From: an uncultured Clostridia bacterium
Lineage (GTDB): Bacteria; Bacillota; Clostridia; TANB77; CAG-465
DNA length: 64,000 bases
Direction: 5' to 3'
Assembly (NCBI GenBank): GCA_934149365.1
Contig: CAKPEI010000002.1
Coordinates: 139,767-203,766, forward strand
Shown piece by piece: positions 35,316-62,132 of this stretch. Positions within the stretch are counted from its first letter, which is position 1; each line of letters opens with the position of its first letter. Position numbers and translations under genes: made by a program. The notes beneath the pieces are model-generated. The model was not told the origin of the DNA, searched no databases, and saw only the letters and a list, made by a program, of their open reading frames with translations.

Positions 35316-35485
35316 GAGCTATATGTAAAAGATAAAATAAAGGTATAAACATAGTAAATGCAATTAAAAATGATTGCAAAAATTAAATTAATGTGAAATA
35401 ATATGTATATATTAAAATAATTTGTTTAAAGAATACGAGGGGGTAAAAAATATGGGAACAAATAAAAAACGGTATATCATTAATA

Positions 35486-38874: not shown

Positions 38875-38953
38875 CGTTTAAAACAAGGTATAACCATTGC
38901 ATTAAGCAATGTAAATATACAATATTAAGTTTTATATGAAATGGGAGGTAAAA

Positions 38954-47044: not shown

Positions 47045-47120
47045 GGGCGCATAGCTCAGTTGGGAGAGCATCTGCCTTACAAGCAGGGGGTCATAGGTTC
47101 GAGCCCTATTGTGCCCACCA
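47045..47120 (+). tRNA. tRNA-Val (anticodon TAC)
   Basis: GGGCGCATAGCTCAGTTGGGAGAGC..., anticodon loop CTTACAA, T arm GGTTCGAGCCC, CCA encoded. Confidence 0.85.
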
Positions 47121-47131
47121 TTTTTTTATTT

Positions 47132-47208
47132 GGCCTGGTAGTTCAGTTGGTTAGAACGCTAGCCTGTCACGCTAGAGGTCGTGGGTTCGAGTCCCATCCA
47201 GGTCGCCA
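47132..47208 (+). tRNA. tRNA-Asp (anticodon GTC)
   Basis: GGCCTGGTAGTTCAGTTGGTTAGAAC..., anticodon loop CTGTCAC. Confidence 0.85.
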
Positions 47209-47219
47209 TTTTTTTATAT

Positions 47220-47295
<76 letters not shown>

Positions 47296-47341
47296 ATAGT
47301 AGTACTAAAAGAAAATATGTTACATATAATATATTAAGAAC

Positions 47342-47417
47342 GCGGGAATAGCTCAGTTGATAGAGCGCTGCCTTGCCAAGGCAGAGGTCGCGGGTTTGAG
47401 CCCCGTTTCCCGCTCCA
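47342..47417 (+). tRNA. tRNA-Gly (anticodon GCC)
   Basis: GCGGGAATAGCTCAGTTGATAGAGC..., anticodon loop TTGCCAA. Confidence 0.85.
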
Positions 47418-47476
47418 AATTTTATGTACATAAGAAATGCTGCTTTGCATATGATGTAGTATAAAATATTATATAG

Positions 47477-47550
47477 GGCGCTATAGCCAAGTGGTAAGGC
47501 ACGAGTCTGCAAAACTCTGATCCCCGGTTCAAATCCGGGTGGCGCCTCCA
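47477..47550 (+). tRNA. tRNA-Cys (anticodon GCA)
   Basis: GGCGCTATAGCCAAGTGGTAAGGC..., anticodon loop CTGCAAA, T arm CCCGG-TTCAAAT-CCGGG; the short D loop is typical of tRNA-Cys. Confidence 0.75.
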
Positions 47551-60439: not shown

Positions 60440-60522
60440 AGTTATTATATCAGAAAAATATGGAAAGTTAAAGAAGAATGTGTTACAGAAAAATTACAAA
60501 TAAATAAATAATACCAAAAGTG

Positions 60523-60551
60523 TTGAAAAAAGAAATAATATATAGTAATAT
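60523..60551 (+). promoter_or_regulatory. promoter of leader L4 (TTGAAA-N17-TAATAT)
   Basis: Same architecture as the L1 and L2 promoters. Confidence 0.4.
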
Positions 60552-60592
60552 AAAAAGGTAAGAGAAAGAATAAAAAGAAAAGAGGTGAAAAT

Positions 60593-60655
60593 ATGTTAAC
60601 TAAAGAGCATGCAAACGGTATAACTCTAGAGAGAGCATACAATTTAAGAATATAG
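60593..60655 (+). CDS. leader peptide ORF L4 (20 aa, MLTKEHANGITLERAYNLRI) with a short (GA)3 tract
   Basis: GAGGTG ribosome-binding site. MLTK...TLER is conserved with L1 and L2. The alternative frame (minus 2 nt in the GA tract) extends to a TAA at about 60733, in the terminator loop. Confidence 0.4.
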   Translation: MLTKEHANGITLERAYNLRI

Positions 60656-60716
60656 CTACAAAAGTAGCTGCGTTTTGCGTGCAGAAAATAAAAGAATATA
60701 GTAAAGTAAAAAAAGA

Positions 60717-60756
60717 AGTTAGTTATACAGAGTAAAATGTATAGCTAGCTTTTTTG
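60717..60756 (+). terminator. intrinsic terminator/attenuator of leader L4
   Basis: AGTTAGTTATAC-agagtaaaat-GTATAGCTAGCT followed by TTTTTT. Confidence 0.55.
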
Positions 60757-60953
60757 CGTCTAAATAAAAAGAAAAGCAAAAATTAATTAAGGTATAATCA
60801 TGATAGTAAATCATGTAAATATACACAGCCATATATACATAAAAAACATAACCAAAAATACATAAAAGCAATTAAAAACAATTGCAAAATTTAAAGTAAT
60901 GTGAAATAATATGTATATATAAAAATTGTTCTAAGAAAATGGAGGAAAAAAGT

Positions 60954-62132
60954 ATGAGAACAAAAGTTAAACTAAAAGGCGGAATATCATTAATAGTATT
61001 AGTAATAACAATAATAGTAATGATAATATTAGCCGCAGCAATAATTTTGTCACTATCAAATAGTGGAATAATAGGGAAGGCAAATAAAGCAAAGACAGAT
61101 AGTGATACAGCAAATTTAAAAGAGTATGTAAATACCCTAAGAGCAGAATGGGAGTTAATGACAGCAGATGAGCAAACAGCAGAAGGTTCATTTGAAGCGT
61201 ATGCAAACAAAAAGCTAGAAAAGAGTGGCTACAAAGGAGCAGTAGGAGCAGATGGAGAAGTATATTCAAACTTAAATGAAAATGCAAGAAAAGCAATAGT
61301 AGCGGGAATAAAGGTAGGAGATGTAGTAACAGGATATACAGTAACATCGACTACATATACAACAGACGGAAGAGAGAATACATGTGACCAAAATAGCCAC
61401 ACAGAAACCAATCCACAACCACAAACCATAACAACAAATACAGATATAACATGGAAATACTTAGGAACAAATGCAAATGGAGAGCTAGAAATAATGGCAG
61501 ATTTATCAACGGCAAATGCAGTAGCAACAAATACAAAAGTAACGTTAGGAGGAAAAGGTGGATACCTAAATGGACCTGCAATGTTAAACACAATATGTGA
61601 AAAGCTATATTCAAAAGAAGGAGTAGGAACAGCAAGAAGTATGAATATAGATGATGTAAATAATATATTAGGATATACAGGACCAAAAGGAACATATTAC
61701 GATAATAATAATAATGAAGTAAAAACACCAACAGCATTAACAATAGGAGAAATAGAAAGTAAACTGGGAACGACATTAGGAAATGGAACAACACCAGATG
61801 GAAAAGACTTAGGAACATATTATGCAGATTATTACTATATAAATAAAACAAGTGATGTAAAAGAGATGGAAAATCCGGGTAATATAGATTTAGTATACAA
61901 TGCTAAAAATACGTACTGGCTTGCTTCTCCATGTGTCAGTATGGCTTTTGGTCTCAGCGATGCAAACTTCCTTGTACGCTGCGTTGGCTCTGCTGGCGTG
62001 GACGCGAGCGGTGCGTTCGGTTCGAATGTCTACTCTAGCATCTATGCGTATGCGGTTCGCCCCGTAGTTTCTCTAAAATCTAATATCCAGTTAACACGAG
62101 ATGCTGGGGAAACAGAATGGAAAATAAAGTAG
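60954..62132 (+). CDS. prepilin-like N-terminus protein, paralog 4 (MRTKVKLKGG|ISLIVLVITIIVMIILAAAIILSLSNSGIIGKA...; C-terminal YWLASP...AVRPVVSLKSNIQ)
   Basis: ATG after a GGAGG site; the ORF-track start 60939 lies inside the ribosome-binding site. The N-terminal ~110 aa and C-terminal ~130 aa are paralogous to the gene at 35486, with a divergent Thr/Asn-rich middle. Confidence 0.6.
   Translation: MRTKVKLKGGISLIVLVITIIVMIILAAAIILSLSNSGIIGKANKAKTDSDTANLKEYVNTLRAEWELMTADEQTAEGSFEAYANKKLEKSGYKGAVGADGEVYSNLNENARKAIVAGIKVGDVVTGYTVTSTTYTTDGRENTCDQNSHTETNPQPQTITTNTDITWKYLGTNANGELEIMADLSTANAVATNTKVTLGGKGGYLNGPAMLNTICEKLYSKEGVGTARSMNIDDVNNILGYTGPKGTYYDNNNNEVKTPTALTIGEIESKLGTTLGNGTTPDGKDLGTYYADYYYINKTSDVKEMENPGNIDLVYNAKNTYWLASPCVSMAFGLSDANFLVRCVGSAGVDASGAFGSNVYSSIYAYAVRPVVSLKSNIQLTRDAGETEWKIK

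Follow-up and report, generated by a model that had tools for sequence, protein, structure and literature searches.

Does a dinucleotide repeat of only four units, set inside a short leader open reading frame (ORF), still bear on the expression of the gene downstream? We address this question for leader L4, which precedes a gene for an orphan protein with a pilin-like N terminus in a 64,000-nt stretch of DNA from an uncultured Clostridia bacterium (the full stretch is hereafter called the window; its G+C content is 30%). Our analysis supports the conclusion that L4 is probably the contracted (AG)4 allele of a phase-variable transcription attenuator. This conclusion builds on the anatomy of the leader, on a frame rule that it shares with its relatives, and on tract-length polymorphism at the locus and family-wide, each of which was directly observed.

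A sequence-only reading of this locus had proposed that a promoter, a GAGGTG ribosome-binding site, a leader ORF, a hairpin, and a terminator are arrayed upstream of the gene; all of these were recovered (Table 1), and the (GA)3 repeat that it described is present as AGAGAGAG. The labels P1 and P2 each denote two distinct elements, namely promoter P1 and helix P1, and promoter P2 and hairpin P2. In its present short frame, L4 would release the ribosome at position 60655, i.e., 63 nt before the terminator. The same reading held that loss of one GA would join the start codon to a long frame ending at a TAA in the terminator loop. We reproduced this prediction in silico, in that simulated removal of one AG unit yields a 46-codon frame, MLTKEHANGITLESIQFKNIATKVAAFCVQKIKEYSKVKKEVSYTE-stop, which ends at a TAA (60733 to 60735) lying inside the L4 terminator loop. 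Five features that characterize a leader-peptide simple sequence repeat (SSR) attenuator are present at L4: (i) a leader ORF with its own ribosome-binding site; (ii) a repeat inside that ORF with a unit length that is not a multiple of three; (iii) a predicted intrinsic terminator before the structural gene; (iv) a stop position that depends on the frame; and (v) a repeat number that varies between strains, with both frame classes represented.

L4 is one of four paralogous leaders (L1 to L4) within 64 kb, each located before an orphan-protein gene with the N-terminal sequence K-G-I-S-L-[IV]-V-L. The sole long dinucleotide repeats of the window lie in two of these leaders, i.e., (AG)17 in L1 (18003 to 18036) and (AC)15.5 in L3 (38736 to 38766), and both tracts align with the position of the L4 tract.

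Orthologues of L4 were anchored on exact protein identity to the neighbouring single-copy Smr protein, read from its second ATG, which has a Shine-Dalgarno sequence; eight contigs reach the leader. At the L4 position, the window and contigs L023, L024, and L030 carry (AG)4 in the short frame, L025 carries (AG)13, likewise in the short frame, and L026 carries (AG)15 in the long frame, which ends at the loop TAA, while contig L028 ends within the tract (frame not readable). The accessions behind L025 and L026 are ERZ27287315 and ERZ28615083, respectively. The 119 to 140 nt after the tract show 0 mismatches among these positional orthologues; therefore, the tract is the sole difference between them. 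The sequence-only reading had proposed a search of L4 orthologues for expanded GA tracts, and would have been abandoned if orthologous leaders never changed in tract length. Such expansions do exist, to 13 and 15 units, and three lengths (4, 13, and 15 units) segregate at this one position. The (AG)4 allele lies 18 nt, in frame, from the 13-unit allele and a single unit from a common 3-unit, locked-ON allele. The proposal that L4 is an evolutionary intermediate between L2 and the expanded L1 and L3 is better replaced by that of one allele state of a strain-polymorphic locus. Length variation is also seen at the L1 position (anchored on SpoVS), where 17 units place the leader in the short frame (the window and L034) and 18 units place it in the long frame (L032), called there as a 52-aa gene.

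The relation between frame and terminator was followed in nine leaders, i.e., L1 to L4, their metagenome relatives L021 and L022, and three CA-type leaders from a metagenome-assembled genome (MAG), uncultured Clostridia bacterium E03__bin236. In all nine, exactly one post-tract frame is open to 14 to 30 nt into the terminator element, where it ends in the loop or the 3' arm, and the remaining two frames stop 33 to 71 nt 5' of the terminator (63 to 71 nt for L4). The rule holds for GA and CA tracts alike, which are placed identically in their leaders; therefore, it is the length of the tract that counts and not its sequence. Two close relatives illustrate the range of states: L022 is a leader nearly identical to L4 but at another locus, with (AG)13, and L021 is a long-frame version that is 2 nt shorter. 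Besides L4, the short or degenerate tracts seen as DNA (L2, L021, and E03 locus L003) are all in the long frame, and the (AG)4 allele of the window, which combines a short tract with a terminating frame, is the less usual case.

A census of leader peptides extended this pattern. When proteins were searched with the long-frame peptide of the L4 type, 61 clusters of called ORFs were returned, among which the long-frame peptides follow the pattern L-E-(R-E)k-S-I-Q-F with k = 0 to 5, implying (AG)3, 6, 9, 12, 15, and 18. This three-unit period is as the frame rule predicts. Three called peptides in the short frame, LE(RE)4RAYNLKI, imply (AG)16. Many of the long-frame peptides are of the (AG)3 type, and one (P0162) is the very peptide predicted for L4 minus one unit, encoded at another locus adjoining a peptidase U32 gene. 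The census is uninformative on ON:OFF ratios, because short-frame peptides with few units are too short to be called.

The leader is also predicted to be a structured RNA. The 231-nt L4 leader folds much more stably than its shuffles (z = -6.1), and the duplex between the two arms of helix P1 (60607 to 60617 with 60671 to 60682) has a predicted energy of -15.4 kcal/mol versus -7.8 ± 2.7 kcal/mol in shuffles (RNAduplex). Helix P1 encloses the repeat tract and hairpin P2 in L4, and equivalent helices, whose arm sequences differ but whose pairing is kept, occur in L1, L2, L3, and the E03 leaders. CA-type leaders carry TCTAG-N7-CTAGA where GA-type leaders have hairpin P2. Applied to a MAFFT alignment, RNAalifold recovered the terminator alone, with 3 compensatory pairs in the consensus and in agreement with RNAfold; helix P1 and hairpin P2 were not recovered because their register differs between GA-type and CA-type leaders, and helix P1 was therefore documented sequence by sequence with RNAduplex against shuffles. 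A simple terminator scan flagged the small hairpin P2 alone, so that the main terminator comes from RNAfold and RNAalifold. Searched against Rfam 15, the leaders gave no match at gathering thresholds, and the E-value mode over 60450 to 60960 gave a chance-level mir-1 match (E = 0.81). Two candidate antiterminator pairings were rejected. The terminator 5' arm has an 8-nt complement in L4 (GUAUAACU, 60617 to 60624) that is not conserved in L1, L2, and L3, and a resemblance in L4 of the hairpin P2 5' arm to the terminator 3' arm is not conserved in L1 to L3; the antiterminator idea was dropped.

Table 1. Features of the L4 locus, in window coordinates
Feature	Position	Strand	Remarks
Direct repeat GTTACA-N5-ATTACA, ~25 nt 5' of the promoter P1 -35	60482-60498	+	Seen in the sequence; Tandem Repeats Finder (TRF) period-11 row at 60483-60505
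Promoter P1 candidate, TTGAAA-N17-TAATAT	60523-60551	+	Hexamers and 17-nt spacing kept in L1 to L3 and in leaders of other assemblies; spacer sequence variable
Leader Shine-Dalgarno GAGGTG, 5 nt 5' of ATG 60593	60582-60587	+	Kept in L1, L021, L022, and orthologues
Leader ORF in its present short frame, 20 codons, MLTKEHANGITLERAYNLRI-stop	60593-60655	+	TAG at 60653-60655
Helix P1, 5' arm, inside leader codons 5 to 9	60607-60617	+	RNAfold
Repeat tract AGAGAGAG, i.e., (AG)4 or A(GA)3G, within the leader ORF	60628-60635	+	
Hairpin P2, TAGCTAC-AAAA-GTAGCTG	60653-60670	+	First three bases are the short-frame stop
Helix P1, 3' arm	60671-60682	+	RNAfold
Intrinsic terminator, 12-bp stem (60718-60749), 8-nt loop, T6 (60750-60755)	60718-60755	+	-13.5 kcal/mol; present in all leaders
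Motif GGTATAAT, then hairpin CATGAT-AGTAA-ATCATG (60799-60815)	60791-60815	+	
Palindrome GCAATT-N6-AATTGC, overlapping the promoter P2 -35	60868-60885	+	Inside repeat D12, 91% identical between L2 and L4
Promoter P2 candidate, TTGCAA-N17-AATAAT, extended -10 TG (TGaAATAAT), -10 hexamer at 60905-60910	60882-60910	+	3' of the terminator
Structural-gene Shine-Dalgarno GGAGG, 8 nt 5' of ATG 60954	60941-60945	+	
Structural gene, 392-aa orphan protein with pilin-like hydrophobic N terminus KGGISLIVLVITIIVMIILAAA	60954-62132	+	Identical to P0001

In the mechanism that we propose, transcripts from promoter P1 would carry the short leader ORF with its AG repeat and then the intrinsic terminator, and slipped-strand gain or loss of AG units would shift the leader frame. 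With a unit number divisible by three, the ribosome would translate past hairpin P2 and the helix P1 3' arm, enter the terminator 5' arm, and stop at the loop TAA; there it would cover about 60721 to 60748, such that the terminator hairpin would be blocked and the polymerase would continue into the pilin-like gene. In either of the remaining frames, release would be early, the terminator would form, and transcription would end at ~60755. Short repeat tracts slip far less often than long ones. With its four units, L4 would be in a quasi-locked low state for promoter P1-driven expression, and we infer that it switches far more slowly than tracts of 13 to 18 units.

That translation would block the terminator is taken by analogy from the pil1 and pil3 loci of Streptococcus gallolyticus, the sole precedent for the same mechanism that we found in the literature. 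There, GCAGA repeats in a leader ORF followed by a terminator form an experimentally demonstrated switch (Danne et al. 2014, PMC3894217): expression is low when the leader stops 28 nt or more before the terminator and high when it ends within or past the hairpin, the effect depends on translation, and deletion of the terminator locks expression high (PMC3894217). The present loci share with pil1 and pil3 (i) the succession of promoter, leader ORF with an SSR whose unit is not a multiple of three, intrinsic terminator, and surface-appendage gene, here predicted from sequence; (ii) short leaders that stop well 5' of the terminator (at least 28 nt there, 33 to 71 nt here; the low state, predicted here) and long leaders that reach into the hairpin or beyond it (the high state, likewise predicted here); and (iii) strain-variable repeat numbers at more than one locus per genome. 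They differ in several respects. There is no sequence relationship between the two systems, the one being found in Streptococcus and the other in uncultured Clostridia, and the unit is the pentanucleotide GCAGA there and the dinucleotide AG or CA here. In pil1, both out-of-frame classes give long leaders, whereas one frame in three reaches the terminator here. In addition, a long-range helix together with a hairpin encloses the tract here, and some loci have a candidate second promoter. Finally, S. gallolyticus has two pilus operons encoding sortase pili, whereas the present loci are many, dispersed, and monocistronic (four in 64 kb), and they encode orphan proteins with a type IV pilin-like N terminus.

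Several observations weigh against reading L4 as an attenuator allele. First, the window has (AG)4 at 3 independent sites versus 2.6 expected, i.e., at chance level. Promoter-like matches are likewise not enriched in this AT-rich stretch (8 versus 6.0 ± 2.3 in shuffles); the significance of the L4 leader rests on its homology with other leaders and orthologues and not on motifs alone. Second, one open frame is expected by chance in 0.16 to 0.42 of shuffles per leader, and in about 0.009 jointly for three independent lineages, a joint value that leaves out both the simultaneous closure of the other two frames and the fall of the stop inside the hairpin. Third, tract lengths were read from consensus metagenome assemblies. 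Fourth, coupling of transcription and translation is thought to be loose in at least some Firmicutes, and ribosome-mediated anti-termination would therefore need a pause; our guess, modelled on the 1:2 hairpin of trpL, is that helix P1 and hairpin P2 might pause the polymerase and let the ribosome catch up. Fifth, candidate promoter P2 could bypass the attenuator and drive the gene whatever the leader frame.

This last point leads to the strongest alternative, which concerns the 200 nt between terminator and gene (60757 to 60953). The sequence-only reading had passed over this stretch, which holds a conserved hairpin, a palindrome, and the conserved promoter candidate. According to this alternative, the L4 leader would now be largely irrelevant, the gene being driven from promoter P2, perhaps via the overlapping palindrome, and the contracted tract would reflect relaxed selection. 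The hexamers, spacing, and TG of promoter P2 recur in L2 (35374 to 35402) and in E03 locus L003 (5862 to 5890), the latter in the MAG of another species and with a diverged spacer. Across loci, the module is present in four lineages with short or degenerate tracts (L2, L021, E03 locus L003, and the L4 locus) and absent from five lineages that all have long tracts (L1, L3, L022, L006, and L007), a distribution that speaks for this alternative. The lineage sample is small and phylogenetically non-independent, however, and promoter-like matches, as noted above, do not exceed those in shuffles. The (AG)4 allele is found in at least four assemblies with the 392-codon gene intact, which likewise speaks for it, but these assemblies are essentially one clone, so that the intact gene says little. 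Moreover, contig L026 has, at this one locus, both the promoter P2 module and a long-frame leader with (AG)15, and the module thus does not preclude a live switch. On balance, we regard dominance of promoter P2 at L4 as possible but rather doubtful. It is compatible with the attenuator as the best explanation for the family and differs from it only on the present role of L4. It also bears on the description of L4 as mostly OFF-locked in the sequence-only reading: the short, terminating frame agrees with that description, but OFF can be stated with confidence only for promoter P1 transcripts, as the promoter P2 candidate lies downstream.

The same stretch carries a further conserved element. 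The motif AAGGTATAAyCAT and the hairpin that follows it after the L4 terminator are also found at window positions 38887 to 38915 (L3) and at about 2425 to 2460 of L019, and the hairpin stem changes with compensation between them (CATGAT/ATCATG in L4, CATTGC/GCAATG in L3, and CATAGT/ACTATG in L019). The element is absent from L1.

Alternatively, the repeat might act through RNA structure, such that tract length alters the loop enclosed by helix P1 and hence the folding, processing, or stability of the 5' untranslated region (UTR). Helix P1 does enclose the tract in all SSR leaders, and SSR-dependent 5'-UTR structure has a precedent in Haemophilus influenzae hmw1A, where a heptamer repeat makes up one side of an extended hairpin that RNase III cuts, and where expression declines in a graded manner as repeats are added (Rapun-Araiz et al. 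2025, PMC12721329). Like that repeat, the L4 tract is a transcribed SSR upstream of an adhesin or pilin-like gene, in a structured 5' leader RNA. Unlike it, L4-type tracts are unpaired in the predicted folds, lie inside an ORF, and form an allele series with a three-unit period. GA and CA tracts, moreover, share their position, the leader start codon and Shine-Dalgarno sequence are conserved, and the three-frame stop pattern together with the long-frame series of 3, 6, 9, 12, 15, and 18 units points to the reading frame and not to graded length. We therefore consider this explanation improbable.

Still less probable is that the leader ORF encodes a functional small protein with two repeat-selected isoforms, the hairpin and U-tract merely ending a small gene and the downstream gene having its own promoter. 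Long-frame ORFs of 45 to 60 codons are called as genes in many assemblies, and the peptide stretch ATKVAAFCVQKI is conserved among GA-type leaders. This conserved stretch coincides, however, with hairpin P2 plus the helix P1 3' arm, such that RNA structure explains the conservation; the long-frame peptides of CA-type leaders are unrelated; no promoter candidate follows the terminator ahead of the gene in L1, L3, and L022; and the long-frame stop always falls inside the terminator. Lastly, the chance-level count of (AG)4 in the window would allow the (GA)3 tract to be an accident of an A/G-rich leader, unrelated to switching, but this we deem extremely unlikely, as the tract aligns with the (AG)17 of L1 and is replaced in orthologues by (AG)13 and (AG)15 between identical flanks.

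Turning to the regulated protein, the sequence identical to the 392-aa product (P0001) has >1,500 homologues, nearly all in ENA gut metagenome assemblies. No Pfam or NCBIfam domain was found in it. Its AlphaFold2 (AF2) model (predicted local distance difference test [pLDDT] score, 90) consists of a 56-residue N-terminal helix (residues 13 to 68) followed by a mixed alpha/beta domain, for which Foldseek found no match in PDB or BFVD, and a PDB profile search returned geopilin only, non-significantly (E = 0.12). Relative to the prepilin motif G-[FMI]-[TS]-L-[IV]-E, the protein has G-I-S-L-I-V, with Val and not Glu at +5, and it is therefore only a candidate type IV pilin. Elsewhere in the window lie the housekeeping genes of a spore-forming Firmicute, including pflB/pflA, SMC, topB, SpoVS, and a germination protease, and Rfam matches at gathering thresholds identify a 6S RNA gene (767 to 915) and a five-tRNA cluster (47045 to 47547). 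The gene linked to L2 presents a peculiarity of its own: an ATG at 35452 to 35454 is offset by one base from the frame of the main ORF, whose start is a GTG (35486), and an A6 run (35464 to 35469) lies between the two; A5 would give MGTNKNGISLIV... This run could be a homopolymer switch, a pseudogene lesion, or an assembly error; leader L2 itself is locked in the long frame.

Two observations concern the ends of the leader. Repeats resembling GTTACA-N5-ATTACA precede the same promoter in L001, L002, L018, and L022, and the repeat upstream of L4 is possibly a regulator site or an UP-like element. The terminator motif AAGTTAGTTAT...ATAGCTARCTTTT also serves as what appears to be an ordinary leaderless gene-end terminator in two MAGs (L004, 3728 to 3775; L005, 7923 to 7959). 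A scan of a genome collection with this motif gave matches in two MAGs only, the pattern being probably too strict and the lineage poorly represented.

The architecture upstream of these genes is not constant. In a sister lineage (L029, L036 at 2381 to 2640, L037, and L040), the same position, pflA-Smr...DUF4046-lepA, has no leader ORF, repeat, or terminator; instead, TTGAAA-N17-TGgTATAAT, with a strong extended -10, is followed by a 110-nt UTR with a hairpin, GTGCTTTACAAGGCAC, and by a paralogous gene that begins MRFNTKRGISL... Likewise, in L018, promoter P1 is joined straight to the gene, whereas the same DUF308 locus in L022 has the full (AG)13 leader, and the upstream sequences are 98.9% identical. 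L019 (2340 to 2400, corresponding to L002 at 2840 to 2900) has a minimal leader, i.e., a 6-codon ORF (MKLVIC-stop) after a purine-rich stretch, with its TGA in the terminator loop; translation of this mini-ORF is doubtful, because no spacer separates its Shine-Dalgarno-like sequence from the ATG. The L1 position varies as well: some strains carry another cassette there, and others have lost the gene. In L033 (2786 to 3200), promoter P1 is kept at that position, the leader and pilin-like gene are gone, and SBP_bac_5 comes next.

Gene bodies and leaders also appear in different combinations. Paralogues share ~200 nt of near-identical 5' gene sequence (e.g., window 60954 to 61150 versus L019 at 2501 to 2700), which is longer than the assembler k-mer, and most metagenome contigs break within it (contig ends in L010 to L017). 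The same gene body is found behind different leaders across assemblies (L001, L002, L020, and L026/L030), which may reflect recombinational shuffling or chimeric assembly. L001 and L002, which carry an identical L4 gene, were considered as sources of orthologous L4 leaders and rejected: in its upstream part, L002 represents the locus of another paralogue, P0010 (that of L019), and since the shared ~200 nt exceeds the k-mer, chimeras are possible.

A wider reading would join these observations, and we put it forward only tentatively. The window would offer a sample of phase-variable genes spread over the whole genome of an uncultured Clostridia lineage from the human gut, comprising dozens of dispersed pilin-like genes, each behind a modular 5' cassette. 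The cassettes would be of several types (GA or CA SSR attenuator, locked-ON or locked-OFF short tract, mini-ORF, and leaderless promoter), and recombination within the ~200 nt of near-identical sequence at the 5' ends of the genes would bring cassettes and gene bodies into new combinations. Helix P1 and hairpin P2 would provide a dedicated pause that makes anti-termination workable in a Firmicute, and L4, with its second promoter, would have been caught moving from stochastic to conventional control.

Set beside other known systems, the L4 leader resembles the trp, his, and pyrBI attenuators of E. coli in that the position of a ribosome on a leader ORF would decide whether a downstream terminator forms, and the trpL 1:2 hairpin, which overlaps the leader ORF, could correspond to helix P1 and hairpin P2. 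In contrast to the trp and his attenuators, the L4 leader peptides have no run of regulatory codons, and no conserved antiterminator pairing was found among L1 to L4; the input, moreover, is the supply of charged tRNA or nucleotides in classical attenuators and a heritable frameshift here. In the CT/AG tracts of Helicobacter pylori and the CTCTT repeats of Neisseria opa genes, slippage of an SSR in the coding region switches the frame of a surface protein. There, the repeat lies in the structural gene and control is translational, whereas the repeat here stands 318 nt 5' of the gene start, in a separate leader ORF, and control is predicted to be transcriptional.

The mechanism itself is not new; the new part is its probable independent, multi-locus occurrence with dinucleotide repeats in an uncultured gut lineage. 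For metagenomics, these loci matter because they break assemblies and because their leader ORFs are called or missed according to phase. The natural allele series from (AG)3 to (AG)18, together with the leaderless and mini-ORF versions, amounts to a ready-made set of constructs for the study of ribosome-terminator interference. L4 itself carries a modest message, as the short, slow end of that series. The host lineage belongs to the uncultured gut Clostridia seen in Hadza and other human metagenomes, and that the same logic appears to have been built independently there and in S. gallolyticus suggests a recurrent solution and not a curiosity.

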